Assembly (NCBI GenBank): GCA_965207075.1
Contig: CBDBLO010000002.1
Location: forward strand, 832,001 to 896,000
Direction of reading: 5' to 3'
Source of the DNA: Nitrosopumilus sp.
GTDB lineage: Archaea; Thermoproteota; Nitrososphaeria; Nitrososphaerales; Nitrosopumilaceae
DNA: 64,000 nt
Shown piece by piece: positions 41,385 through 58,689 of the stretch. Made by a program: the position numbers and the translations under genes. Each line of letters starts with the position of its first letter. Position 1 is the first letter of the stretch. The notes below the pieces were generated by a model that saw nothing but the letters and a program-made list of their open reading frames with translations, was not told where the DNA came from and ran no database searches.

Positions 41385-42833
41385 ATGGACGCGACTCAGA
41401 ACGGACAATCATCCCAGCAGCAGCAGCAGCAAAAGCAGCAGCAGAACAAAAAGGCACGCCGCCGGAATCGACGGCATCGGCAATTCCAGGATGCGCAAAG
41501 GCAGCCGCAGACTCCGCAGCAAAGGCAGCCGCAGACTCCGCAGCAAACAGAACCCCCTGCGCAGTCAGCGGTAAACTTTGAGGATCTTCGAGGGGACTTT
41601 CCGATACTTGCCCGGACCGTCAGGGACGGAAAGCCCCTGGTATATCTGGATAATGCATCCACCACGCAAAAGCCCACGCAGGTGATAGACGCGATAGGCG
41701 ACTATTACAGGACGTACAACGCGAACACCCACAGGGCCGTATACGCGCTTGCCGAGGAGGCCACTGAGGCCTACGAGGCGGTCCGGGACAAGGTGGCCAA
41801 ATTTGTAAACATCAAGGACCGGCAGGAGATAATATTCGTCCGCGGCACTACTGAGGCAATCAACCTGGTGGCGTACGCGTGGGGAAGAGGACACGTAAAG
41901 CCCGGCGACATCATAGTCACTACGGAGTACGAACACCACAGCAACATTGTGCCGTGGCAGCTCGTGGCCGAAGAAAGAGGGGCCGTCCTAGAGTATATCC
42001 GGATTGACGATAACGGCGAGCTGATTCTTGACGACTTGGACAAGCTGCTTGAGACTGGAAGGGTGAGGCTGGTCGCGTTCAGCCTGATGTCAAACGTGCT
42101 TGGCACCATCACGGACTCAGACGCAATCATATCAAAGTGCAAGGCTGCCGGCGTCCCCACGCTGGTGGACGGCGCCCAGGCCGTGCCGCACATGCCAGTC
42201 GACATCGCGTCGCTCGGGTGTGACTTTTTCGCGTTCTCCGGCCACAAGATGATGGGGCCCACCGGCATAGGCGTGCTCTGGGCGAGCAAGGAAATGCTGG
42301 GCGAGATGGTGCCGTTCCACGGGGGCGGCGACATGATACGAGAGGTTCACAAGTACGAGTCCACGTGGAACGACCTGCCGTACAAGTTCGAGGCCGGCAC
42401 GCCCAACATCGCCGACGTGATAGGGCTGGGAGCCGCCATAGACTACCTTGAGAGAATCGGGATGAAGAACGTCCGAAGCCACGAGCTGTTCCTCACGCGG
42501 TACGCGCTAGAAAAACTGTCGGCCGTACCGGACCTCAAGATATACGGGCCAAAGGACGCCTCGAGGCGCGGCGGCGTCATCTCGTTTAACTTCCAGTCGG
42601 TGCACCCGCACGACGTCGCGTACATAATAGACGAGGCCGGCGTGGCGCTCAGGTCGGGACACCACTGCGCGCAGGTGCTGATGGAAAAACTCGACGTGGC
42701 GGCCACGTCAAGGGCGAGCTTTTACCTGTACAATACAACCTCCGAGATCGACGCGCTGGTAAGATCGCTTGACACGGTGGCGCAAAAGTTTGCGGTGCGC
42801 GGCAAGGAAGGGGAGGACGGGGCCGCAAAATGA
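41385..42833 (+). CDS. sufS: Cysteine desulfurase SufS with Gln-rich N-terminal extension
   Basis: YLDNASTTQKP, EHHSNIVPW, DGAQ, FSGHKM, RSGHHCAQ. Confidence 0.95.
   Translation: MDATQNGQSSQQQQQQKQQQNKKARRRNRRHRQFQDAQRQPQTPQQRQPQTPQQTEPPAQSAVNFEDLRGDFPILARTVRDGKPLVYLDNASTTQKPTQVIDAIGDYYRTYNANTHRAVYALAEEATEAYEAVRDKVAKFVNIKDRQEIIFVRGTTEAINLVAYAWGRGHVKPGDIIVTTEYEHHSNIVPWQLVAEERGAVLEYIRIDDNGELILDDLDKLLETGRVRLVAFSLMSNVLGTITDSDAIISKCKAAGVPTLVDGAQAVPHMPVDIASLGCDFFAFSGHKMMGPTGIGVLWASKEMLGEMVPFHGGGDMIREVHKYESTWNDLPYKFEAGTPNIADVIGLGAAIDYLERIGMKNVRSHELFLTRYALEKLSAVPDLKIYGPKDASRRGGVISFNFQSVHPHDVAYIIDEAGVALRSGHHCAQVLMEKLDVAATSRASFYLYNTTSEIDALVRSLDTVAQKFAVRGKEGEDGAAK
41495..41547 (+). repeat. 24-bp tandem repeat (about 2.2 copies) in the sufS extension
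   Basis: GCAAAGGCAGCCGCAGACTCCGCA twice, encoding QRQPQTPQ. Confidence 0.85.
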
Positions 42834-43324
42834 GCAGCGGTGGCAACGCGGACATCTACCACGAGATGATCGTGGACTATTCGAGGAATCCGGCAAACTT
42901 TGGCAAGATAGAGAACCCCGACGTGACGTTTCATGACGCAAACCCGCTGTGCGGTGACACCATAGACATAGACATGAACATATCCGACGACGCCGTCTCG
43001 GACATAAAGTTCCACGGCAAGGGCTGCGCAATCTGCATGGCGTGCTCGTCGGTCCTGACTGAGATTACAAAGGGAAAGAGCCTGGAGGAGGTGAGGGCAG
43101 TCGGCAAGGACGACATACTGGGCGAGCTGGGGCTGGAACACCTGCAGGCGGTCCGCATAAAGTGCGCGCTGCTGCCGCTGAAGGTGTTCAAGTCGGCGCT
43201 GTACACGTACCTTGGAAGGCACCTGCAGGGTGCGGGCAGCTCCACTGACCCGGCCGCCGCGGACACTGGCATGTCTGCCGAGGAGATCGACAGACTAAAA
43301 GAAGAGGCTGCCGGACTATACTAG
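42830..43324 (+). CDS. sufU: SufU/IscU-type scaffold protein
   Basis: NPLCGD, GCAICMACSS, RIKCALL. Confidence 0.9.
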   Translation: MSSGGNADIYHEMIVDYSRNPANFGKIENPDVTFHDANPLCGDTIDIDMNISDDAVSDIKFHGKGCAICMACSSVLTEITKGKSLEEVRAVGKDDILGELGLEHLQAVRIKCALLPLKVFKSALYTYLGRHLQGAGSSTDPAAADTGMSAEEIDRLKEEAAGLY

Positions 43325-43723
43325 ATGGCTGGCGATTCCCACGGGACGGCAGGGGCCGGTGACGCTCCCGCCGCTACTGCCTCCGGCAACAACGCCGACG
43401 GGCTGGGCCTTGAGATGCGCCGCGCGATATTTGAGAATTTCAACGACCTCGAGCTCCGGTTCACGAACGACGAAGTCCTTGACATCATGCGCAAAAAAGG
43501 CGTCGTGGACGACGCGTGTGACGTGTGCGACGTCGAGTCCGACTTTGTGTCGCTGTGCGAGTCGGGCCTCGTGCGCAACATAGCGCAGAACTTTAACACG
43601 ATGTGGCTGCGCCTCTTTGACGTGGTGGACGAGGTGAAGTGCGGCGCCTGCTCCCAAACAATCCACTTGGGAAGGGCAGAGGAGCGCGCGTGTCCAAATC
43701 CCGGCTGCGGGGCGCCACTGTGA
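43325..43723 (+). CDS. Conserved hypothetical protein with C-terminal zinc ribbon
   Basis: GLVRNIAQNF motif; CGAC...CPNPGC. Confidence 0.65.
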   Translation: MAGDSHGTAGAGDAPAATASGNNADGLGLEMRRAIFENFNDLELRFTNDEVLDIMRKKGVVDDACDVCDVESDFVSLCESGLVRNIAQNFNTMWLRLFDVVDEVKCGACSQTIHLGRAEERACPNPGCGAPL

Positions 43724-43727
43724 AAAC

Positions 43728-44833
43728 TATAGTCAAGAGCAAAAGTTCGTGAGCAGGCACTTGTCCTAAACGGAACCTTCATTGATCATACTAATCGGCA
43801 TACCGCATGGTCGAAACATCCAAGGAGGAATTCAAACAAGCCTACCGAAAGGAAAAGGATCCCAGGGCGGTCAAGAGGATGGCCGCGGTGAACATGGCGT
43901 ATTACAACCAGGAGAGCACGCAGCACGTGGCCGACTCGCTCATGCAGTGTCCGAACCGGGCCCTGACGTGGGTAAGGCGGTTTGAGGAGGGCGGAATAGA
44001 CGCCCTCCGGGACCTTCCCAGGAGCGGAAGGCCTCCAAGGATCGACCGCGCGACGATGGATAATATGTTGTCGGAGGCGGGGCAGTCAAAGACCACGCCG
44101 GCGAAACTCCGGCAGAAGATACGCCGGGAGGCGGGGATCATATTCCACGTGACGTACGTCAGGAAGCTCATGTGCAGGGCCGGACTCTCCGCCAAGACGG
44201 CCACCATGGTGCCCGCCAACCGCGCAGACAGCGGGACGGTAAACTCGTGGCGCCACCGGACGAAAAGGCGCACCGCACGCCTGAAAAAGGCCGGATTCGC
44301 CGTTGCGGCGATGGACGAGGCGTTCTTCATGCATAATGACGCGGTAGGTCGCAAGTACTGGCCGCCCGTGGGAACCCCGGTGAGGGTTACGCATGCGGGG
44401 GGACGCAGGAGGCTGACCGTGTTTGGCGCAGTCACGGACGACGGGAGGCAGTTCTTCAGGACGTCCACCCAGGGCTTCAACGACGGGACGTTCGTGCCGT
44501 ACGTCAGGGCCATTCTCCGCCGCTTCAAGAGAGTCGCGCTGATACTGGACGGGGCGTCGACGCACCGCTCAAGACTGACAAGGGAGGCATTTGGCGGAAA
44601 CAAGAACGTCGAGCTCATCTACCTGCCCACGGCCTCGCCGTACCTCAACGCCTCCGAACAGTGCTGGAACAGGGGAAAGAGAGATCTGATGAATTCGGAA
44701 TACTATGAGACCTTTGACGACATGCGCAAGGCCGTGTCAACGTACCTCAGAACAATACGGTTCGACCTTGACATACACAGGTACCTCAACAGAAAAGCCT
44801 CAAAGTACTCATGAACTTTGGATCGGCACTATA
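43728..44833 (+). mobile_element. IS630-family insertion sequence, apparently complete
   Basis: Imperfect TIRs TATAGTCAAGAGCAAAAGTTCGTGAG versus reverse complement TATAGTGCCGATCCAAAGTTCATGAG (20/26 by eye), TA at both ends, enclosing a transposase. Confidence 0.88.
43807..44814 (+). CDS. IS630-family transposase
   Basis: HTH (WVRRFEEGG..LRDLPRSGRPP), DDE: MDEA, ILDGASTH, LPTASPYLNASEQCW. Confidence 0.92.
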   Translation: MVETSKEEFKQAYRKEKDPRAVKRMAAVNMAYYNQESTQHVADSLMQCPNRALTWVRRFEEGGIDALRDLPRSGRPPRIDRATMDNMLSEAGQSKTTPAKLRQKIRREAGIIFHVTYVRKLMCRAGLSAKTATMVPANRADSGTVNSWRHRTKRRTARLKKAGFAVAAMDEAFFMHNDAVGRKYWPPVGTPVRVTHAGGRRRLTVFGAVTDDGRQFFRTSTQGFNDGTFVPYVRAILRRFKRVALILDGASTHRSRLTREAFGGNKNVELIYLPTASPYLNASEQCWNRGKRDLMNSEYYETFDDMRKAVSTYLRTIRFDLDIHRYLNRKASKYS

Positions 44834-44988
44834 TTATATTTTTTACTTGATTCCTGCTCGAGTCTTTCAATCCTGCTCTCGTATTCCTTTTTCATTTTTT
44901 CAACTTTATAATTGATCTTCAAATTCTCAATTGCCACACCTGATTTACCTGATGATTGTGTGTAACTTGTGACTGAGTTATCATGACC

Positions 44989-45295
44989 GTATGCACTCAG
45001 GTCGGCGCATCTCACAACACGAACGTAGGTGAAGAGCTGTTTCAGCATGCCGCAGCGATGGCGACGACAGAGGGAGTCATTGTTGCAGCCTGCCCGGACC
45101 GTTCCGCGCGCTCCGGGCAGTCGGGCGGCCTGAATATGCGCCAGTCCGGATACTCGATCATGCACTCCACCGCCGCGCGCGGGAACATGCCCAGCTTCTG
45201 GCACGTGCGCGCGACGGACACCAGCACGGAGAACACCTGGCGCCCCTCCGGCGTGGACAGCTGGCGGCGCACGTTGCGGTGCAGCACGACCCCCT
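44989..45295 (-). pseudogene. IS66-like transposase C-terminal fragment with probable element end
   Basis: VVLHRNVRRQLSTPEGRQVFSVLVSVARTCQK resembles the IS66 TnpC C-terminus; high-GC patch ending at GTATGC (44989), abruptly truncated at about 45295. Confidence 0.6.
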
Positions 45296-45395
45296 AAAAC
45301 ATATTAATGAAATAAAGGTTTCAATGATTTTGAAGTAATACCGCAACATTGATTTTAATTTTTAGCAAAACTCACCACCACACAACCATCATCAA

Positions 45396-45436
45396 GAATA
45401 ATTTTAATAATTAATAATAATTAATAATAATTAATG
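45396..45436. repeat. AT-rich short tandem repeat (AATAATTAAT)n
   Basis: aataattttaataattaataataattaataataattaatg in an otherwise GC-rich genome. Confidence 0.7.
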
Positions 45437-45788
45437 ATTGAGAATTGATCGTATATTACACATGTTCACTTGGGTGATTTTAAATATTCATGTCAGGTAG
45501 GGAGCTTGGTTCACACTGTAATTTAGCGTCACAGCAGTGGTTGACACACCGACAAGGACGCGAGTGCCCTCGAATCGTACCCACCGCGTTTGCACAAGCA
45601 CTCTAGGCCGTAATGCATTTATACGTACATGTGACTTTGTGTTGCGATGGACAAATTGGGCAGTCTTGCAGTAAAAAGACTCTTGAGATTATACACTGTG
45701 CCTGAGAGACACTGCGATACCTGTGAGCAAAAAAGAACTAATGTACAACTTTGCGTTTTGCCCGGGAGGAGCGCACATCGCGCGGAGG

Positions 45789-48700
45789 TTGAATGACAGA
45801 TTGCAGGCGCTGACGTGGGTCGTAATGGCATTTGTATTGTTTACAGTTGCATATGCGCCGTCTGCGTTTGCACAGACTGTCGTGGGGGATCCGTGCAATG
45901 ATGGCAACAGTGTGGACGTCACTCCGGGACGAGTAACATACGATCTGAGCAGTATAGAATGCATGGTCGACGAGGCAGTCTCAGAAGCCTTGGAGATGTA
46001 TGAAGAACGGGGCAGTTCCTCTTTTGACGCGATTACGGCCTCTGCTGTGGATGAGCCCCCGTTTGCACCGTTTGTCATCCATGCCGATGATCTGCGTATC
46101 GTGGCAAACAGCGCCGACCCTGATTACGTGAACCGGACTGCTGAATACCTGCGCAATGCCAATACTACTCTTGAACAAGTTCTTGCCCTGCAGAACGGTG
46201 AAAAAATCTGGGTAAAGTACATCGACACCAATCCTGCGCTTGGACAGGAACAGGTAAAAGTTGCACTGTTGCTTTTACATGGTGACTATATATTCGGGGC
46301 CGGATATTATCTGCCGGACTTTGAGGTTCAGGAACTGATCGAGCAGACCGTGCGAGGGTACGAGTCTGACGGCGTGGCCACATTTGAGGACATTACTCCG
46401 GACTCGCCAAGAGTTACAGATGACCTGTACGTGTTTGTGATAAGTTACCCGAATTGGATCAGGGTGGCAGACGGTGTGGTGCCTGACCGGGTGAACAAAC
46501 CTGATACCATTCTTGACACGTCCGCTCGAACGGTTGATGACGTACGTGCGGACCTAGCGGCCAATGGCTCTACATGGGCCACGTATACGTTTCACAACCC
46601 TGCCACCGATATAATACAACTCAAGCGCACGTGGCTCTACCTACATGATGGCTATGTGTTCGGCTCTGGGTATTATCCGCATGACTCTAGGTCGCAATCG
46701 CAGGCAGAATCTGCAAAGATACAATATACTGCACACGGCACCGCTGCCTTTGGAATGATAACTCCGATGGTGCCCAATCCACTATTGACAGACTCTACCT
46801 TTGTACTGGACTCGTCAACCCTCGAGGTGGTGGCACATGCACGTTCGCCATATTTGCTAGAGACGAACTTTGCGCAACTCGCTATGGCAGACAAGCCACT
46901 GGAGAGGATCAGAGACGAACTGCAGCGTGACGAGGATGGCATCTGGGTGTGGTATATGGACTTCAACCCAGCAACTGGGACCAACCAGCTCACCCATGCA
47001 TATATCATATTATATGATGGCTACATATTCGGTGCCAGCTCTCCGCTTCCTGACATACGCGCGCAGGCGGTGATAGATGATGCAATCTACACGTACAGGA
47101 ACAATCCTGACACTGCATTTGACATTATAAATTCCGGAGCGCTCAACAGACTTGATGTCATTCCACTAGTGATCAACGGCACGCTGGTGGCGCACGGACT
47201 CCTGCCGCACTTGGTCGGAATGCCACTGGAGGGTGCGATAGAGAGGAGTACCACGCAAATTTTTGACGATCTGGAGGACGGATATTCTGCGGCCGGGCAC
47301 CTTGCATTTTTTGACCCTCTGACTGGAATAACGCAGATCACGCGCGCCCTGTATGTGTTTCATGATGGTTACTTTTTTGCCGCAACGTATACTATAGCAG
47401 ACGCCGACACTCAGTCCCAGACAGACTATGCTCGGTTTGTGTACGAATCCAACATGGAAGACGGAAAATGGAGGGATATCCTGACTCCTGATGAGCCCAT
47501 AGTGACAGATGATCTGTATTCGTTTGTAATCGACTTGGAATCGTGGACTCGGCTTGCAGACGGTGTGGTGCCAGCGCGTGTAAACCAACCTGAGACCATA
47601 CTGGATACATCCTACAGGTCGGTTGCTGACGTGCGAAGCGACCTAGAAGAGAACGGCAGGACGTGGCTGACGTACACGTTTCACAATCCTGCCACCGGGG
47701 TAGAGCAGCTAAAGCGCACGTACCTCCAGCTGCGAGACGGGCTTGTGTTTGGATCCGGCTACTATCTGCTGGACTCTGAAGTCCAGGCCGTGGCGTATTC
47801 GAGCATACTCTCATACCTTGCCTCTGGCGCGAACGTGGCGCTCGCTACCATCAACGCCATGCAGGACACACCGGTCTCGACGTATCCGTTTGTTGTAGAT
47901 CCACGCTCTGGAACGATACTGGCTCAGGGTGTAAGAGACAGCACGATCGGCACTGCCGACTGGGATGAAATCCTCAAGATACTTTCAGTGGATGAAATTT
48001 TTGCAGAGCTGCAGACCAAACCCGGCATCTGGGTCAGTTATACCCATACAGAACCCGTCAGCGGCGTGTCAGAAGTAAAGCGTACTTGGCTTGCCCATTA
48101 TAATGGATTGATATTCGGATCCGGATACTATACATCGGACATACCGGCATCTGATGCCAAGTTTGTGGTGAATAACGCGATACAGACCTATGACGCCAAC
48201 AGACAAAACGACGCGTGGATAGACATAATCACGCCTGATGAGCCGATCACGACTGACGCCCTGTATCCGTTTGTAATCGACTTGGAATCGTGGACCCGGC
48301 TTGCAGACGGTGTGATACCAGCGCGAGTAGGGCATTCTGAGACCATACTTGAAAAGTCTGGCCGCACTCTGGAAAGCGTGCGTACGGAGCTTCGCGAGCG
48401 CGGCAGCATGTGGATTTCCTATACGTTTCACAACCCTGCCACCGGAATCGAGCAGCTAAAGCACTCTTACTTGCAGCTGCACGACGGTATCGTATTCGGT
48501 TCCGGGTACTATGTACTTGACTCTCGGGTCCAGTCTGCCGTAAACGGCAAGACCATAGAGTATGAGCGCGACGGCTGGGCCGCCACCATTGCCGCCACGT
48601 CGGCAATACCTGCAGAACCAATTTCCACGTACGCCTTTATCGTTGATCCTCAGAGCGGCGCAACCCTTGCGCAGAACGTGGATCCCGTGAGAATCGGCCA

Positions 48701-49700
48701 CGTGGATGACTGGACGGCCATTACGACAACGACGAGCGCACAGTCAATACTCGATATCATTGACAAGGGGACCGGCACGTGGGTCAGTTATGACCACACC
48801 AACCCATTGACTGGCGTTTCGGAGACAAAGCGCGCCTGGCTTGTCTTGCACGACGGTATCGTGTTTGGTTCAGGATATTACACTACTGACATACCTGTAT
48901 CTGACGTGAGATTTGTGGTGAATAACGCGATACAGACCTATGACGCCAACAGACAAAACGACGCGTGGATAGACATAATCACGCCTGATGAGCCGATCAC
49001 GACTGACATCCTGTATCCGTTTGTAATCGACTTGGAATCGTGGACCCGGCTTGCAGACGGTGTGATACCAGCGCGAGTAGGGCATCCTGAGACCATACTT
49101 GAAAAGTCTGACCACACTCTGGAAAGCGTGCGTACGGAGCTTCGCGAGCGCGGCAGCATGTGGGTTGTCTACACTTTCCACAACCCTGCCACCGGAATCG
49201 AGCAGCTAAAGCACTCTTACTTGCAGCTGCACGACGGTATCGTATTCGGTTCCGGGTACTATGTACTTGACTCGCACGTCCAGTCTACCGTAAACGGCAA
49301 GACCATAGAGTATGAGCGCGACGGCAGGGCCGCCACCATTGCCGCCACGTCGGCAATACCTGCAGAACCAATTCCCACGTACGCCTTTATCGTTGATCCT
49401 CAGAGCGGCGCAACCCTTGCGCAGAACGTGGATCCCGTGAGAATCGGCCACGTGGATGACTGGACGGCCATTACGACAACGACGAGCGCACAGTCAATAC
49501 TCGATATCATTGACAAGGGGACCGGCACGTGGGTCAGTTATGACCACACCAACCCACTGACTGGAATCTTGGAGGAAAAGCGCGCCTGGCTTGTCTTGCA
49601 CGACGGTATCGTGTTTGGTTCAGGATACTACGAGTCTACTCAGATTGACATTGAGCCACTGTCATCTGGATCAACACCTGCCCCTGGGCAATGCAGGTGA
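45789..49700 (+). CDS. Large exported protein of ten tandem single-Cache (sCache_2-like) domains
   Basis: Signal peptide (..LTWVVMAFVLFTVAYAPSAFA/Q); ten roughly 120-125-aa units with Y.FV.D...G.W..Y.F.NP.TG..E.K......DG..FGSGYY; no C-terminal TM or output domain; start uncertain (45723-45826). Confidence 0.8.
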   Translation: MNDRLQALTWVVMAFVLFTVAYAPSAFAQTVVGDPCNDGNSVDVTPGRVTYDLSSIECMVDEAVSEALEMYEERGSSSFDAITASAVDEPPFAPFVIHADDLRIVANSADPDYVNRTAEYLRNANTTLEQVLALQNGEKIWVKYIDTNPALGQEQVKVALLLLHGDYIFGAGYYLPDFEVQELIEQTVRGYESDGVATFEDITPDSPRVTDDLYVFVISYPNWIRVADGVVPDRVNKPDTILDTSARTVDDVRADLAANGSTWATYTFHNPATDIIQLKRTWLYLHDGYVFGSGYYPHDSRSQSQAESAKIQYTAHGTAAFGMITPMVPNPLLTDSTFVLDSSTLEVVAHARSPYLLETNFAQLAMADKPLERIRDELQRDEDGIWVWYMDFNPATGTNQLTHAYIILYDGYIFGASSPLPDIRAQAVIDDAIYTYRNNPDTAFDIINSGALNRLDVIPLVINGTLVAHGLLPHLVGMPLEGAIERSTTQIFDDLEDGYSAAGHLAFFDPLTGITQITRALYVFHDGYFFAATYTIADADTQSQTDYARFVYESNMEDGKWRDILTPDEPIVTDDLYSFVIDLESWTRLADGVVPARVNQPETILDTSYRSVADVRSDLEENGRTWLTYTFHNPATGVEQLKRTYLQLRDGLVFGSGYYLLDSEVQAVAYSSILSYLASGANVALATINAMQDTPVSTYPFVVDPRSGTILAQGVRDSTIGTADWDEILKILSVDEIFAELQTKPGIWVSYTHTEPVSGVSEVKRTWLAHYNGLIFGSGYYTSDIPASDAKFVVNNAIQTYDANRQNDAWIDIITPDEPITTDALYPFVIDLESWTRLADGVIPARVGHSETILEKSGRTLESVRTELRERGSMWISYTFHNPATGIEQLKHSYLQLHDGIVFGSGYYVLDSRVQSAVNGKTIEYERDGWAATIAATSAIPAEPISTYAFIVDPQSGATLAQNVDPVRIGHVDDWTAITTTTSAQSILDIIDKGTGTWVSYDHTNPLTGVSETKRAWLVLHDGIVFGSGYYTTDIPVSDVRFVVNNAIQTYDANRQNDAWIDIITPDEPITTDILYPFVIDLESWTRLADGVIPARVGHPETILEKSDHTLESVRTELRERGSMWVVYTFHNPATGIEQLKHSYLQLHDGIVFGSGYYVLDSHVQSTVNGKTIEYERDGRAATIAATSAIPAEPIPTYAFIVDPQSGATLAQNVDPVRIGHVDDWTAITTTTSAQSILDIIDKGTGTWVSYDHTNPLTGILEEKRAWLVLHDGIVFGSGYYESTQIDIEPLSSGSTPAPGQCR
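48162..49627 (+). repeat. Near-identical internal tandem duplication, period 750 bp (two Cache units)
   Basis: 48162-48877 matches 48912-49627; shadow ORFs recur at +750 (48188/48938, 48456/49206). Confidence 0.95.
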
Positions 49701-50071
49701 TTTGCGTACTTTGATATGCCGCAATCGTTGATGTGCAGAACGAGACTGATGCGCAGAGCGCATGAATGTGGTATTGCAAAGTCTACTTAATGATTAAGCT
49801 TTGAGGAAATTCCTCAATATTGTAAATGCCGAGGGAGCAATACACTACAAGAGTACAAAAAAGTGAGAGGTGGCATCGCAGTCTGATTCCGGCACATGGC
49901 ATGCCGCACTCGTGACAGAGAAAGGGTTGGCATGTGACTGTCCATACAACCAAAAACAAAATGCCGTTTGTAAACATGCAGAGGCAGTTGAGATGCTGAT
50001 ATTGTAAAAAACATTTCAGATAAAATCAGGTGGCAAAAAAGTTGTACTGAAAGAGAATACGGATCTATAGT

Positions 50072-50247
50072 TATAGTGTCGTGCAAAAGTCTTGGAGCTA
50101 AAGTATGATCATGAACCAAAAGCTTATAGATCAGATAACATTACGCTGGGTATGACGAGTCTAGAAAATCTTTGCATCGAATACAGAAAGGAGAAAAACG
50201 GCGACGTAAGGATCGGGGTTCATGACCTTTTTTGCAACGGAATGATA
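50072..50247 (+). mobile_element. Internally deleted IS630 derivative (MITE-like remnant)
   Basis: Left end TATAGTGTCGTGCAAAAGTC resembles the IS630 TIR at 43728; short ORF MTSLENLCIEYRKEKNGDVRI echoes transposase N-terminus YRKEKD; degenerate inverted end near 50221-50247. Confidence 0.55.
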
Positions 50248-50789
50248 TGCTTGTAAAGTTATTATTTTATTTTCATATGGCTGTTTTTTATAGACCTGCT
50301 TTATCGGTTCATTCTAGTAGCCATTAGTAAACTCCTCTGACTGTGCCGGCATTGATGCGTGATCCGGACCACACCTATGATGTACGGGTTCACGTCCTCC
50401 TGAAACCGGCACCAGTCCCACACCGTATGTGCCCTTTGACCATGATGGGTTAATTCATGCCCCATAACACAGATGATCTTTTTTAGATTTGTGGGAGCAG
50501 CAACGCCATGAGCACGGCAGTACAAAAAAAGACATGCTCGGCTGTAGTAACCGGGGATCTTGAAGGGGAGGATTCGTCGACACCTGCGACGAGCTTCATG
50601 CAATATCGGAAGGCGATACATCTGGGGAAGTGATGGGAAACATGAGGGAGGCAATGGGGCCTGCAGCAGAAGAGGTGGGGGATACGATAGGCTTCAGCAT
50701 GCTCGCCATGGAACGGCGATGGCAAGGTTTCCACGGTATCTGGCAGTCAGGCGGCAGGATACTTGCAAAGGGGTTTGTCACAACCCGCA

Positions 50790-52010
50790 TCATCTGGGCC
50801 TCTGGTTCCTGTGCCTGGCGGCCGCGTCCTCGAGTGCGCTTATCATGGGAAGGCGCTTGCCTGTCAGGTACAGCACGAGGGCTCCGCCGGCGGTGCTGAT
50901 GTGGTTTATCCTGTCGGTCAGCCCCAGATTCTTTAGCGCCGAGGTCAGGTGGCCGCCGCTGACTATGGTGGTGGCCATGGAGTCCGAGACTGCCCTCAGC
51001 AGGGAGTTTGTCCCATAGCTAAAGTTCTCGTTCTCAAAGAACCCCGCAGGCCCGCTTATGAACACGGTGCCGGCGCCCGATATCAGCTTTGAATAGTACT
51101 CCACCGTCTTTGGGCCCATGTCGTACACCTTGTCCCCCCTGCTCATCTCCCTGACGTCCATCTCGACCCTCTCGCCGTCCTTGTCGATTGCCACGTCCAC
51201 GGGGGTGGCAAACACGTCGGGATACTCGCCGATCAGCGCGTGGGCCTTTGCCACTGCCTCCTCCTCGCGTATTATCCCGAGCGACGACTTTATCCTTGCC
51301 TGCGCGCGCAGGAACACGTTTCCGATGAGCCCGGTCAGCAGTATGTGGTCGGCCCTGCCGTTCTCTATCAGCATCTTTATGGCCTCGAGCCTGTCGGGCA
51401 CCTTTGAGCCCCCCAGCACGATCACGTGGGGGGCCTTTGCCACCGTCATTATGTTGTCAAGGTTCTGGACCTCGCGCTCCACAATCCTGCCGGCGCACGC
51501 CGGCAGCACGTGGGGAAAGCCCACAATAGACGGATGCTGCCTGTGCGCGCTCGGAAACGAGTCCATGACGCACGCGTCGAACAGCTTTGAGAGCCTGGAG
51601 ACCATTATCGTCTTGGCGGCGGCCTCGGGGGGAAACTCATAGTTCTCCTCCGCGCAGAACCTGAGGTTGTCAAGCAGTATGATGTCGCCATCTTTCATGC
51701 CGCGTATCTCGTTTTGGGCCGCCACCCCCATCACGTCCTCCACGTATTTGATGCTGCGGCCGGTCACCTTCTGGAGCACCTCCGCATGGCTTGACATTCC
51801 GGTATAGTCGTTGTTGCCCACCCTTCCCTGATGGGATGCGATCACCACCTTTGCATCCTGCAGCGACTTTAGGCTGGCCGCCGCCTCCTCTATCCGTTTT
51901 GTGCCTAGGATCTCCATTGTGTTGGGGTCGATGGGGCAGTTTATGTCGACCCTCAGGAGCACGGTCTTGCCCCTGAGGTCAAAGTCATCAAGTGTGAGGA
52001 CACTCTTCAC
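50790..52010 (-). CDS. pgk: Phosphoglycerate kinase
   Basis: VLLRVDINCP, ASHQGR, LLDNLRF, AHR, LGGSKV, SGGH, HISTAGGA. Confidence 0.95.
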   Translation of the reverse strand: MKSVLTLDDFDLRGKTVLLRVDINCPIDPNTMEILGTKRIEEAAASLKSLQDAKVVIASHQGRVGNNDYTGMSSHAEVLQKVTGRSIKYVEDVMGVAAQNEIRGMKDGDIILLDNLRFCAEENYEFPPEAAAKTIMVSRLSKLFDACVMDSFPSAHRQHPSIVGFPHVLPACAGRIVEREVQNLDNIMTVAKAPHVIVLGGSKVPDRLEAIKMLIENGRADHILLTGLIGNVFLRAQARIKSSLGIIREEEAVAKAHALIGEYPDVFATPVDVAIDKDGERVEMDVREMSRGDKVYDMGPKTVEYYSKLISGAGTVFISGPAGFFENENFSYGTNSLLRAVSDSMATTIVSGGHLTSALKNLGLTDRINHISTAGGALVLYLTGKRLPMISALEDAAARHRNQRPR

Positions 52011-52146
52011 GATTGTACTGCCAAGGGCCCCGTTAAATTCCTTAAGAGGGGCTGTTTTTGTCCGCGGCCGCATTCCGGGGTGAGGGTGGCAGCGCCCGCC
52101 GCCGATGCTTGGCAAGCTTAATTTGGCCGCCCCCGCCCACCACGCC

Positions 52147-52827
52147 ATGGATCCTCCAATTACGGTGTCTCAGATGTACGACATCGAGAACAGGGGGCAC
52201 GACATGGGCTTTCTCAAAAAATTCATGATGGAGAATGCCGGCGCCGCCGCCGCCAGGCGCCTGGTGGAGGCCGTACGCGCCGGGGGGCACGACGTGGCAG
52301 GCAAGCGCGTTCTGGTGGCCGCCGGCCTTGGAAACAACGGCGGCGACGGGATGGTAGTTGCCCGGCACCTTGCCGGGTACGGGGCTCGTCCCGCAGTGCA
52401 CCTGCTAGGCGGCCCCGATATGATAAAGACGGAGGAGAGCCGGTGGAACTGGTCCCTCTTGGAGAGGATGCCCGGCTCGGTGTCCTTGGTGTCATGCGGC
52501 GCCGGGTTTGTGCGGCCAAGCAGCACGCCTGACGTCCTTGTAGACGCGATATTCGGAACCGGAATTACGGGCGACATACGGGAGCCGTACTCGTCGGCCA
52601 TCGCGTACATCAACGAGCAGCAAGGGCCGTTCAAGATGGCAGTAGACGTGCCCTCGGGGCTCGACCCTCAGACCGGGGAGACTGCCAACATGCATACGGC
52701 GTGCGACATGACCGTCACGTTTCACCGCATGAAGCAGGGCATTCCAAGGCGCCCCGACCTGACCGGCGCCCTGCATACGGAAAAGATAGGCATCCCGCCG
52801 GAGGCGGAGGCAGGAATCGTCTCATGA
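52147..52827 (+). CDS. nnrE: NAD(P)H-hydrate epimerase (YjeF N-terminal domain)
   Basis: MMENAG, GLGNNGGDG, VDAIFGTG, AVDVPSG, TVTFH. Confidence 0.92.
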   Translation: MDPPITVSQMYDIENRGHDMGFLKKFMMENAGAAAARRLVEAVRAGGHDVAGKRVLVAAGLGNNGGDGMVVARHLAGYGARPAVHLLGGPDMIKTEESRWNWSLLERMPGSVSLVSCGAGFVRPSSTPDVLVDAIFGTGITGDIREPYSSAIAYINEQQGPFKMAVDVPSGLDPQTGETANMHTACDMTVTFHRMKQGIPRRPDLTGALHTEKIGIPPEAEAGIVS

Positions 52828-53519: not shown

Positions 53520-54842
53520 ATGGGCGACGGCCTGAGGATACATGGAAGCGAGCGCAGGGGTGCAGACTTTGTCGACTCTGTAGCCTCCGGCAGGTTCCTG
53601 TTCTCGATGGTGATGTCGTATACGTCCACCTGCGAGGTCCCCGGGCTTACGATTGCCGGCGCCGACGCGGACTCGTTCAAGTTCACGCCGCCTGCCGACG
53701 CCGAATACCTGCATTACGGATACTGCAGGACCATCAAGGGCATCCCCGTCACGCCCGACGGCAAGCCGACCCCTGCCGTCCTTACAAAGGCGGCCCTCGA
53801 GCACGCAAGCATTCCGCACGTGGCGATAAACGCCGGAAGCCGCGTATCCCCGAGGCTGCCGTACGTGGCCACGGGGCTCGGATACGGCGGCAACATCCGC
53901 ACGCGTGACGCGATGTCGGTGCAGGACGTGCTGCATGCGGTGGACTACGGGCGCATAGTAGGGAGGAGCTTGGCGCCGCTTGCCGACTGCCTGGTGATAG
54001 GCGAGAGCATTCCGGCCGGAACCACCACGGCAATGGCGGTCTTGTACGGGCTGGGGTATCGCGCGAGGGTCAGCTCCAGCATGCCCTCAAACCCGATATC
54101 GCTCAAGAGAAGGGTCGTACGCGACGCGTTTCTGCGGCTCGGCAGGGATGGCGCGGGGCGTGCACGGCAGCATGCACCCGGGGGGAAGGACGGCCGTGCC
54201 GAAGGCGTCCCTGATGGAGCCGCGGGCAACGCAGCTGGCACTGCACCCGGTGACGGACGGCGTCTGTCAGGCCGGGACCGCCCGAACGCGGCCGCGCACC
54301 CGGAACGCGGCGGCAGTACCTCCGACGCGCAGGCCACCCTTGATGACGTCGCGCCAAAGCCGCCCGGACCGGGTTCAAGCGAGGCGGAGAGGCAGCATTA
54401 CGTGTACCGGATAACGGCAGCCGTGGGGGATCCCATGATTCCGTTCGTGGCCGGCATGCTAAGCTCCGCGTCCGTATCGTCCAAGGTGATGCTGGCAGGC
54501 GGGACGCAGATGGCCGCCGTCCTTGCCGTTGCGTCGGGAATAGGATACGATGACAGCAACGTGGCAGTCGGAACAACCTCGTACGTAGCAGAGGACAAGA
54601 ACGCGGACTTTGCGGGGCTGCTGTCCGACGTGTCCGACGTGCCTGCAATCGCGGTAGATCCGGGGCTTGACGCCTCGCAGCATGCGGGACTGAGGGCGTT
54701 TGCGGGGGGGTATGCCAAGGAGGGTGTGGGCGCAGGCGGCTGCATCATATCTGCCATGCTAAAGACGAATGCCGGGCGCGCAGAGATGGCGCGCGCAATA
54801 GACGCCGAGTACTCCAAAATGCTCGGATCGCGGGCCGCATAA
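53520..54842 (+). CDS. cobT: CobT-like nicotinate-nucleotide phosphoribosyltransferase (archaeal TIGR00303 type) with large low-complexity insertion
   Basis: PGLTIAGA, TPPADAE, PTPAVLT, GESIPAGTTTA, VSSSMP.NP, LAGGTQM, KEGVGAGG. Confidence 0.85.
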   Translation: MGDGLRIHGSERRGADFVDSVASGRFLFSMVMSYTSTCEVPGLTIAGADADSFKFTPPADAEYLHYGYCRTIKGIPVTPDGKPTPAVLTKAALEHASIPHVAINAGSRVSPRLPYVATGLGYGGNIRTRDAMSVQDVLHAVDYGRIVGRSLAPLADCLVIGESIPAGTTTAMAVLYGLGYRARVSSSMPSNPISLKRRVVRDAFLRLGRDGAGRARQHAPGGKDGRAEGVPDGAAGNAAGTAPGDGRRLSGRDRPNAAAHPERGGSTSDAQATLDDVAPKPPGPGSSEAERQHYVYRITAAVGDPMIPFVAGMLSSASVSSKVMLAGGTQMAAVLAVASGIGYDDSNVAVGTTSYVAEDKNADFAGLLSDVSDVPAIAVDPGLDASQHAGLRAFAGGYAKEGVGAGGCIISAMLKTNAGRAEMARAIDAEYSKMLGSRAA

Positions 54843-57144: not shown

Positions 57145-58689
57145 TCACCTTGTCAGTATGACGTGTACGGCGCCGAAGGCTGGTTCCGCCGACCTGCCGG
57201 ACACCTCGCCTGAGACAGCCTCGCGCTCCTCGGGGGTCAGCGTGTCGGCCTCCTCGATGGTCTGGTCGTGCAGCCCCCTTATGTTGTCTAGGTACGCGCC
57301 CACTGCAATGTCGGGCCTGCCGTCTCCGTTCACATCGGCGCGGGAGGATACCGAGAAGCCAAAGAAGTTGTAGTCGTCAAGGGAGGGTCCGTTGGGGGCC
57401 AGGTCGTCGAGTGTCTGCGTCGCCTTTATGGAGCCGTCCTTGTTCATGTACATGATGTGCACCTCGCCCCTATCGAGTCCCCCTCCGTCGCCGCGGTTGG
57501 AGCCGCCGGCCAGCTCGGTCACTCCGTCCCCGTCCAGGTCGCCGATAGCCGACACTCCTATCCCGAAGAACTCGAACTCGTTCAGGACGGGCCCGTTCTC
57601 AGTCGCGCCGTCTATGGTAAAGCTGTCCTTTACCGACCCGTCCCTGTTCATCATCAATACGTGAATGGATCCGGTATTCAGTACGGTGAGGCTGGACGAG
57701 CCGGAGTCGCGGCACATCTTGGCGTATGTCAGGTCCGTGGAATCCGAGCCGACGACCAGGTCGCGCACCCCGTCTCCGTCAAAATCGTCGATTCCGGCCA
57801 CGGCGGTTCCAAAGAAGTGCCCCGGTTCGATGTCGGGCGCGTTGGCCGTACCGTGCCCTATGCTTGCAGACTCCCTGGCCGTACCGTCGGCGTTCATGAA
57901 TATGACATCCACCGATCCGTAGAACTCCTCGTCGGGGTAGGCCGCCAGCCGCTCGCTGACGGTATCTGTAAAGTTAAACGGCAGGTTCAGAAACAGAAAG
58001 GAGCCGTGCGCCAGATACCTGCCGACGGCCACGTCGGGCACACCGTCGTCATCCAAGTCGCCTATGCCGGCCACTCTGAACCCAAAGTACTCGTACTGTC
58101 TGGCCGACAGCCCGGGCACGGTGTCCGGGTTGAGCTCCGCCGACGAGAGCACTGCGCCACTGCGGTCAAGGAAGAGTACGTGCACCGCGCCGGCGTCGGT
58201 TCCGCCCGCATCATCCCCGTCTGCGCCGACGGCCACGTCGGGCACCCCGTCGTCGTTCACGTCGCCTATGCCGGCCACTCCGGCTCCAAAGTAGTCTCCG
58301 GCCCTCAGGGACGGCACGTCGGCGCCGGTGATCTTGACGGCGCTTTTGGCAGTCCCATCGGCATTCATGAACAGCAGGTACGCGGCCCCGGAGTCCTCGG
58401 CGTGCGAGTCGTCACCACTGGCTCCAACTATGAGGTCGGGCACCCCGTCACCGTTCACGTCGCCCACAAAGTCCACGCTGCTGCCGAACGCGTCGTGGTC
58501 ATTGAGTGTCAGTGCGGGTATGCTGCCGTTGTGGATCTTGACGGTACTCTGGGCGTACTGGAACGGCGCGGACGAGGCGTGGGCCTCTTGGTGGTGCGGT
58601 GCGCCCGCCGCCGCCACCGTCGCTGCGACTGCAGCCAGTACCAACACCGCCGCCGCGACGCGGGTTGTCCCAAGTAGCGCTCGTACCAT
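57145..58689 (-). CDS. Secreted FG-GAP / integrin-alpha-like beta-propeller protein
   Basis: Signal peptide; six FG..V...GD.(N/D).DG..D..VG repeats with GAV.V..M strands. Confidence 0.88.
   Translation of the reverse strand: MVRALLGTTRVAAAVLVLAAVAATVAAAGAPHHQEAHASSAPFQYAQSTVKIHNGSIPALTLNDHDAFGSSVDFVGDVNGDGVPDLIVGASGDDSHAEDSGAAYLLFMNADGTAKSAVKITGADVPSLRAGDYFGAGVAGIGDVNDDGVPDVAVGADGDDAGGTDAGAVHVLFLDRSGAVLSSAELNPDTVPGLSARQYEYFGFRVAGIGDLDDDGVPDVAVGRYLAHGSFLFLNLPFNFTDTVSERLAAYPDEEFYGSVDVIFMNADGTARESASIGHGTANAPDIEPGHFFGTAVAGIDDFDGDGVRDLVVGSDSTDLTYAKMCRDSGSSSLTVLNTGSIHVLMMNRDGSVKDSFTIDGATENGPVLNEFEFFGIGVSAIGDLDGDGVTELAGGSNRGDGGGLDRGEVHIMYMNKDGSIKATQTLDDLAPNGPSLDDYNFFGFSVSSRADVNGDGRPDIAVGAYLDNIRGLHDQTIEEADTLTPEEREAVSGEVSGRSAEPAFGAVHVILTR

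Follow-up and report, generated by a model that had tools for sequence, protein, structure and literature searches.

Ten chained sCache_2-type units without a signalling output in a predicted exported Nitrosopumilus protein, a candidate extracytoplasmic small-molecule binder

In prokaryotes, no extracellular sensor is commoner than the Cache domain, which has been studied almost only as the input module of receptors. Among described systems, the closest to the protein considered here are the sCache_2 domains of chemoreceptors, namely Adeh_3718 (4K08), PscD (5G4Y), a Vibrio parahaemolyticus protein (4EXO/2QHK) and Helicobacter pylori TlpB (3UB6). According to two papers (PMC5062169, PMC3831638), solved carboxylate-binding sCache_2 domains hold the ligand between two aromatic residues, with its carboxyl group hydrogen-bonded by Tyr, His, Tyr and Lys; these contacts are Tyr90, His103, Tyr143 and Lys156 in PscD and Tyr94, His107, Tyr147 and Lys160 in Adeh_3718. 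The His position switches specificity: as worded in the relevant passage of a 2025 study (PMC12415202), His goes with pyruvate and Leu with L-lactate, and one substitution converts the domain. Haber et al. 2021 (PMC7848895) found sponge-associated Thaumarchaeota to be enriched in three Cache Pfams, two of them sponge-specific, and took these as candidates for cell-surface recognition; the passage concerned gives Pfam counts only. Here we describe a gene at 45741..49700 (+) of a 64,000-nucleotide stretch of a Nitrosopumilus sp. contig (CBDBLO010000002.1, positions 832,001 to 896,000; hereafter the window), which encodes a predicted exported protein of ten chained Cache units. The gene comes from the lineage in which the enrichment was reported, and very probably the same genes underlie that report. 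Cache enrichment in sponge Thaumarchaeota is already known; the array architecture was not found in print, and tandem arrays, the lack of outputs, pocket types and fusions were not found described in the full-text literature, where only Haber et al. 2021 and an archaeal two-component census came up, the supplements of Haber et al. lying outside this search.

The gene occupies an intact + strand open reading frame (ORF; 45723..49700 in the ORF list) whose frame is unbroken over 3.9 kb. Its likeliest start is the ATG at 45741, giving 1319 amino acids (aa), which we favour over the in-frame GTG at 45723 and TTG at 45789 because a 98 %-identical database protein from another contig (P0003, 1319 aa) begins at the same Met. 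The initial annotation had placed the start at 45789, which is in frame on the + strand but is the TTG. A predicted signal peptide (45741..45872, +) comprises a basic n-region, a hydrophobic core and an Ala-x-Ala cleavage-type site between AFA and Q, and paralogues and homologues look alike at their N-termini. The segment ending at this site is the sole strongly hydrophobic one in the protein (hydropathy, 19-aa window, mean >= 1.6); export and signal-peptide cleavage are predicted on this basis. A short linker with one Cys (45873..45941, +) leads into the array, a second Cys standing where unit 1 begins. The array comprises ten units that end at ORF residues 196, 318, 441, 557, 681, 803, 930, 1053, 1180 and 1303 with a period of 116-127 aa, and they carry a Y.FV.D strand and the motifs W..Y.F.NP.TG and DG.xFGSGYY. 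Only 22 residues remain after the last unit, a Pro/Ser/Gly-rich tail (49632..49697, +) with a penultimate Cys (...CR) and no transmembrane (TM) helix. The mature protein is strongly acidic, at ~141 kDa with an isoelectric point of 4.4 and a net charge of about -97.

Hydropathy detected no second TM segment in the protein, and Pfam and NCBIfam gave no match in it to HAMP, MCP, HisKA, HATPase, kinase or GGDEF, the NCBIfam scan returning nothing relevant. In sorting signals of the PGF-CTERM and PEFG-CTERM type, a TM helix and then a basic tail come after a C-terminal motif; the array protein has no C-terminal hydrophobic segment and no NCBIfam match to such a signal at E <= 1. The architecture read from the sequence in the initial annotation, with a signal peptide, ten motif-bearing units and neither a second TM segment nor an output, is upheld by these ORF, motif, hydropathy and Pfam/NCBIfam checks.

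Searched as a whole, the protein exceeds the Pfam thresholds for dCache_2 (38.2 bits, threshold 26.5) and sCache_2 (PF17200; 27.1 bits, threshold 25). These matches are driven only by unit 6 and its flank, and the dCache_2 model spans two consecutive units. Cut out singly, none of the ten units passed a Pfam threshold, only unit 6 matching sCache_2 (E 0.049), and a ten-unit profile found no meaningful match among PDB sequences (best E 0.85). Both failures count against a Cache assignment, and because of them the assignment was tested in three other ways. In a search of the genome, a single unit profile recovered all ten units at E <= 1e-39, and they are therefore homologous to each other. An AlphaFold model of units 5-6, built on 141 unit pairs from related loci, reached a predicted local distance difference test score (pLDDT) of 94.1 and a predicted template modelling score (pTM) of 0.87. 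In a VIA-align comparison with structure representatives, this model matched 4K08 best (Z 12.0, root mean square deviation 2.9 A over 120 of 144 residues), with 4EXO next (Z 11.1) and further matches to TlpB 3UB6 (Z 9.1) and to formate sensors (Z 7.6-8.6). Structures of dCache and classic PAS type ranked among and below these, and Foldseek agreed. A deeper two-unit profile gave only weak matches in the PDB (4K08, E 0.09; 5G4Y, E 0.25). A bridge to solved structures is provided by the relative P0049 (E 2e-252 to the query), which scores 563 bits on sCache_2 over 13 stretches and matches five solved sCache_2 domains at E 1.2e-7 to 2.4e-6; paralogues of the array protein score 36-70 bits. Most homologues carry PF27194 in their precomputed annotation, an accession that may be a recent, curated model for this unit, and a cluster atlas search returned only generic Cache_2 clusters. 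Taken together, the whole-protein Pfam matches, the fold match to 4K08 and 4EXO and the P0049 bridge bear out the sCache_2-like identity that the motifs had suggested.

A model of units 1-9 (pLDDT 82.1, pTM 0.76; pLDDT < 50 for residues 1-17) repeats the order helix-helix-hairpin-helices-three strands nine times, diverged units included. The models show the elements of a PAS-like alpha/beta fold, a long N-terminal helix, a beta-hairpin, a helical insert and the three-stranded end of a sheet of five strands. As in dCache domains, PAS-like modules stand in one chain, here predicted to be extracytoplasmic, but they number ten instead of two and lack a receptor body. Whereas the two modules of a dCache domain share one long stalk helix and form a single bimodular sensor, every unit of the array begins with an N-terminal helix of 18-32 residues of its own, the units are serial, and dCache structures align to one unit only (101-117 residues). 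Since the pTM of 0.76 extends over nine domains, the inter-unit geometry is predicted as fixed, and the units probably form a defined, rigid chain. Such fixed geometry is one of the points in favour of an alternative in which the array is a structural stalk, spacer or adhesin, its Cache modules acting as rigid beads with relic pockets that project or tether other domains or stick to host matrix. With the nine-unit model as query, Foldseek turned up no solved assembly that resembles it in overall shape (template modelling score <= 0.28). It did return the eukaryotic alpha2delta-1 and Cachd1 (probability 0.97-1.0), which are extracellular multi-Cache proteins, likewise without enzymatic output in the same chain, but differ in overall arrangement (template modelling score <= 0.12). 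These two are channel or receptor subunits that combine dCache_1-type modules with a VWA domain, and alpha2delta binds small amino-acid-like ligands in its Cache pocket.

Relative to the sCache_2 chemoreceptor domains, the array units share the fold (Z 9-12), the motif order and, as predicted, the extracytoplasmic placement. They differ in being compact (~123 aa against a 155-position model), in occurring ten to a chain instead of singly, and in lacking a flanking TM pair, HAMP/MCP or kinase, and their sequence similarity is so low that single units miss the Pfam thresholds. The arrangement of Cache transmembrane sensors such as MCPs, histidine kinases and cyclases, with two TM segments and a transmitter, was found neither in the array protein nor in its relatives.

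Chained input domains that end without a transmitter could also stem from a receptor gene that is decaying or has been truncated, or from a repeat that produced an assembly artefact. The gene does lie in a low-GC island beside a transposase, and its last 1.5 kb consists of 750 nt duplicated almost exactly, which short-read assemblies fail to span. Identity between units 7-8 and 9-10 is 92-94 % in protein and 95.3 % over 750 nt, within a range of pairwise unit identities of 21 to 94 %. Contigs from public runs of two studies reproduce 45440-48191 without difference and break only within the duplicated part; over that part (48.2-49.6 kb), contig depth approximately doubles, as expected for two copies of 750 nt, and the copy number there is read from depth only, no contig bridging it. 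Tandem Repeats Finder, whose limit lies below the 750-nt period, reported nothing but a 10-nt AT repeat upstream. Against truncation and artefact alike stand the intact frame, the 98 %-identical protein of the same length on another contig and, in the same genome, two collinear ten-unit paralogues that are 57-62 % identical to it over their full length, as well as a whole family devoid of outputs. We regard either explanation as very improbable.

The absence of outputs was followed through the family at three levels. Precomputed annotation lists no signalling Pfam for any of the 120 near-length homologues listed. None of the 89 family genes from related loci whose stop codon lies inside the locus encodes a C-terminal TM helix by hydropathy; their hydrophobic segments are N-terminal, and most stop within ~25 residues of the last unit, the rest carrying C-terminal fusion domains. 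A length-unrestricted hidden Markov model search of 1.84 billion cluster representatives recovered 975 at E <= 1e-3, of which 145 reach E <= 1e-30. Among the best 150 of the 975, units per protein range from 1 to 16 (one unit in 4 proteins, two in 34, three in 34, four in 32, five in 18, six in 14, seven in 5, eight in 6, and nine, twelve and sixteen in one each). Pfam scans of 64 close representatives (37 + 27), which are all those with an extension or internal hydrophobic stretch large enough for an output, found no output domain. Full-length homologues with a TM segment and a signalling domain, which would have marked this copy as a truncated receptor, thus appeared at none of these levels, and we conclude from the comparative evidence that the gene is no truncated receptor. 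As judged from sequence, the Cache module in this family is freed from signal transduction and reused in 1 to 16 copies as an extracytoplasmic building block.

All fusion partners in the family are extracytoplasmic. Among the scanned representatives they include SBP_bac_3 (10), Peripla_BP_6/ANF_receptor (6) and SBP_bac_5 (3), further a haloperoxidase-like domain pair, 5'-nucleotidase, SIMPL, collagen, laminin-G with an immunoglobulin (Ig) domain, SdrD_B, SLH and surface Ig-like domains, and in other relatives a BspA-type leucine-rich repeat (LRR) and LVIVD. Seen from the stalk or adhesin alternative, this is a set of unrelated partners (SLH, Ig-like, laminin-G, collagen, BspA-type LRR, LVIVD, 5'-nucleotidase and four binding-protein classes), and the variable unit number with a recent duplication or conversion of a unit pair is typical of surface repeat proteins. 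Among the observations in their own right, the haloperoxidase-like pair, DUF6851 + VCPO_2nd, stands C-terminal to the Cache units in P0188 and P0224 and N-terminal to them in P0094. The products of the related loci L042, L054 and L077 have three to nine Cache units followed by a conserved ~530-565-aa C-terminal region, which by its length and position may be the same pair.

An expansion of the family has taken place in ammonia-oxidising Nitrosopumilaceae associated with sponges. Named genomes contribute 76 related loci, of which 75 belong to metagenome-assembled genomes (MAGs) of Nitrosopumilaceae or other Nitrososphaerales (Cenarchaeum sp., Nitrosopumilus sp., Thaumarchaeota isolates) and one is bacterial. 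Within Nitrosopumilaceae, 30 of 201 genomes and 7 of 27 genera match, and the distribution is patchy: one genus has matches in ten of ten genomes, with up to ~110 candidate units per genome, and the genus of the window in 3 of 17. This patchy, lineage-specific distribution also suits a stalk or adhesin. The genome of the window, 95 % complete, encodes archaeal AmoA and urease alpha, an ammonia oxidiser with urease, and holds 38 units in five genes. Three of these are collinear ten-unit genes, and two are four-unit paralogues (L013:3459-6275:+ and L014:2967-5753:-) that end in an SBP_bac_3 or NMT1/THI5-like binding domain; both of the latter also carry an N-terminal WING-49 match (NCBIfam, 44 bits, cut-off 22). 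Put forward in the initial annotation as the best candidate for an undescribed system, the gene does not stand alone: it is one of five paralogues within a large family, in a lineage whose Cache Pfam enrichment was already published.

Given the sCache_2-type fold of the units, we asked which residues occupy the ligand-contact positions. These were mapped by sequence alignment, not from coordinates, onto Tyr and Phe in Y.F, the position that follows V-A in V-A-H-G, Tyr and Phe in W..Y.F and Lys in K-R. Across 423 near-complete units of the family, the quartet is Y-H-Y-K in 140, Y-D-Y-K in 56, Y-Q-Y-K in 54 and Y-N-Y-K in 11, and Y-x-Y-K is retained in at least 261; the contact columns rank 23rd to 47th of 121 in family conservation. 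Within the array, seven of the ten units keep the Tyr/Tyr/Lys set of the receptors together with the aromatic sandwich, the first aromatic being present in all seven. Units 2 (46311..46676), 5 (47394..47765), 7 (48132..48512) and 9 (48882..49262; 92 % identical to unit 7) are of an Asp type, Y-D-Y-K with a Phe/Phe sandwich. Units 6 (47766..48131), 8 (48513..48881) and 10 (49263..49631; 94 % identical to unit 8) are of a Gln type, Y-Q-Y-K with Phe and, at the second sandwich position, His. The three others are diverged: unit 1 (45942..46310) with A-N-Y-K, unit 3 (46677..47045) with a third pocket type, S-H-Y-T, and unit 4 (47046..47393), the most diverged and with one low-confidence loop, with I-H-L-T. 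All units are on the + strand. Motifs and pocket alignment identify them, joined by the nine-unit model for units 1 to 4, the unit profile for unit 1, the two-unit model and structural match for units 5 and 6, homologue conservation for units 2, 3 and 5 to 9, and the above-threshold Pfam sCache_2 match for unit 6.

No unit of the array has the full Y-H-Y-K quartet of the carboxylate sensors: the His is Asp in four units, Gln in three and Asn in one, and the two units with His are without other members of the quartet. Because the specificity His is replaced by Asp or Gln, the pockets are not of the canonical carboxylate type. The alignment places an Asp at the same position in TlpB (3UB6, solved with urea), whose quartet is Y-D-Y-K as in units 2, 5, 7 and 9. 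Conservation was read from 20 collinear homologues (53-65 % identity, plus one at 99 %). In units 2, 5, 6, 7, 8 and 9, all 24 of the 24 pocket positions (four per unit) are invariant, as against 26.9 % of columns overall, with the caveat that longer homologues can align any Asp-type unit to any other; unit 3 retains its own conserved set across homologues. These patterns argue that the ligand pocket is under constraint and that most units keep a small-molecule pocket, from which we infer ligand binding and ligand class. They are not what would be expected of relic pockets in a stalk, since polar pocket residues that are invariant, with unit-specific Asp or Gln, persist at 53-65 % identity.

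We favour a reading in which the array is a non-signalling multivalent small-molecule binder outside the cell, because the pockets are polar, conserved and unit-specific and because the units are repeatedly fused to binding proteins of uptake systems; we give this reading, in which ligand binding and physiological role are inferred, about an even chance. Under it, a Sec-exported, strongly acidic chain of ten sCache_2-type modules, with no transmembrane or cytoplasmic transmitter, would capture or retain small polar metabolites in the envelope or its close surroundings, for example short acids or amides such as urea. The array would have at least two pocket specificities alternating along it and would serve uptake, not perception. 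In function it would resemble the solute-binding proteins of ABC and TRAP systems, likewise non-signalling extracytoplasmic binders (binding by the array being predicted); two paralogues and many relatives have such proteins fused to their Cache units. Those proteins differ from the array in their unrelated fold, and the array protein has neither a binding-protein Pfam match nor adjacent transporter genes.

Several observations weigh against this reading. Weak profile alignments (E 0.09 and 0.25) and the P0049 bridge are the basis of the pocket mapping, and the pockets of units 1 (A-N-Y-K), 3 (S-H-Y-T) and 4 (I-H-L-T) are altered. The conserved Tyr and Lys could be kept for fold stability. The comparison with TlpB takes Asp114, Tyr153 and Lys166 as its urea contacts, and text searches for Asp114 found nothing. 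The fusion partners, comprising four binding-protein classes, enzymes, SLH, Ig and LRR domains, fit a generic scaffold at least equally well. An operon link between the NMT1-fused paralogue and an ABC permease was considered and rejected, the permease being of the Opp/Nik type and mismatched to the SsuA-like binding domain.

The stalk, spacer or adhesin alternative gains further from the family's fusions to surface-anchoring modules, from surface recognition having been proposed in the cited passage of Haber et al. 2021 (PMC7848895) and from the conserved single penultimate Cys, which could form a covalent link. Beyond the conserved pockets, it is countered by the absence of any adhesion-type domain from the array protein (Pfam) and of an anchoring signal, neither a C-terminal TM segment nor a known sorting motif having been found. 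We consider it a real possibility, albeit a clearly less probable one than the multivalent binder. The two are compatible, in that a rigid rod with ligand-binding beads would satisfy both.

A soluble array might instead act as a sensor in trans, binding its ligand and docking on a membrane kinase or transporter whose gene lies elsewhere, in the manner of the binding proteins that serve LuxQ, TorS or Tar-type receptors. Cache domains are overwhelmingly sensory, as stated in a passage of PMC4822843; five HATPase_c matches are present in the genome, and the binding-protein fusions place the family in a functional neighbourhood with uptake systems. However, all five HATPase_c matches lie far from the array genes, the nearest ~250 kb off, and no kinase or receptor gene is near any of the five array genes. 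The genome, at 95 % completeness, has no MCP domain and no sCache_2 protein other than the products of the five array genes. Ten pockets per chain are hard to fit to one-to-one docking, and the gene was inserted without a partner. A trans-acting sensor is, in our estimate, quite unlikely.

A more specific version of the multivalent binder can be sketched, which we hold to be speculative and on balance rather doubtful. The rigid and highly acidic rod, with its alternating pockets, would be a substrate-concentrating device, a new use of sensor domains outside signalling, and would keep nitrogen compounds from the host at the cell surface of an ammonia oxidiser that has urease. The four TlpB-like Y-D-Y-K pockets would take urea or small amides and the three Gln/His pockets another small acid or amide, the rod as a whole serving as an extracellular buffer or antenna that feeds transporters. 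In the fusions to ABC binding proteins, the same arrangement would have been made covalent, and the conserved penultimate Cys would serve either to attach the rod to the envelope or to join it to a second one.

What sets the family apart is the same Cache module, with its pocket conserved, uncoupled from a transmitter and chained up to 16 times in a lineage with little signalling machinery. If the pockets bind host metabolites, the arrays would give an obligate chemolithoautotrophic symbiont a new means of harvesting or holding, inside an animal, such substrates as urea, amides or short acids, and an array would mark a sponge-associated lifestyle. Directly testable predictions of ligand class follow from the switch residue, which is Asp, Gln or His depending on the unit, and the rigid repeat offers a tractable system for the exaptation of sensor domains to non-sensory roles.

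Both ends of the proteins show further regularities. The ...CR end is shared by the window protein, L011, L012, L015, L021, L027, P0003, P0005-P0013 and P0015; among the 89 family genes it occurs in six, all of them ten-unit genes, and one more ends in CRG. In this subfamily of ten to fifteen units, the mature protein is nearly Cys-free except for the penultimate Cys, and we know of no sorting or modification signal that matches such an end. At the N-terminus, a Cys ~30 residues in, within a lipobox-like L-V-A-C or F-A-L-C, is found in L011, L012, L015, L021, L027, P0002, P0004, P0005, P0008, P0010, P0012 and P0013, which hints at N-terminal lipid anchoring of those homologues. The window protein, P0009 and P0015 are without it, and P0049 has a bacterial-type lipobox.

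The array gene lies in a genome-specific, low-GC insertion (43325..50792, unstranded) between NifU (42830-43324) and PGK (50793-52148), which comprises a transposase gene, the array gene and AT-rich spacers. Both SufS and PGK occur in 19 genomes of the same genus, and in 18 of these the gap between them is 778-796 bp; here it measures 7,962 bp, which places the array gene and the transposase within an insertion of ~7.5 kb. Its GC content is 0.52-0.54 against 0.58-0.64 in its surroundings, falling to 0.43-0.46 in the spacers; the array gene has a GC of 0.527 and a third-codon-position GC of 0.58, compared with 0.58-0.595 and 0.69-0.75 in the paralogues. No repeats bounding the insertion were found. 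The transposase gene (43807..44814, +; 335 aa) is of the IS630/Tc1 DDE type (Pfam DDE_3, 82.3 bits, with HTH_32 and HTH_33). The nearest relatives outside the species are archaeal (Nitrosopumilaceae) proteins ~60 % identical to the array protein, for which reason transfer probably took place between Nitrosopumilaceae. Of the horizontal gain suggested in the initial annotation, the acquisition itself agrees with the genome-specific insertion and with relatives in sponge-associated MAGs, but a bacterial-symbiont donor is not needed, the closest homologues being archaeal.

Within ~10 kb of the array gene are genes for Suf Fe-S assembly, the DDE_3 transposase, PGK, YjeF_N, a metallo-beta-lactamase-fold protein and a GlmS-like SIS protein, with no signalling or transporter gene in that range, in keeping with the early remark that no signalling gene was nearby. 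A sigma-70 promoter and terminator scan gave nothing above shuffled sequences, the sigma-70 model being inapplicable to archaea. The upstream spacer (43 % GC) contains an AT-only 10-nt tandem repeat in four copies (45397-45435), where breaks in public contigs are frequent. The edge of the insertion next to NifU holds an ORF, immediately following that gene, for a Cys-rich 132-aa protein (43325-43723, +) that has no Pfam match and is too long for the 778-796-bp SufS-PGK gap of related genomes. A 440-aa ORF (53520-54839, +) has no Pfam match at E <= 1e-4. Farther on, 7.5 kb downstream of the array gene, 57148-58689 (-) encodes a 514-aa FG-GAP-repeat protein (111 bits), likely of a surface or adhesion type.

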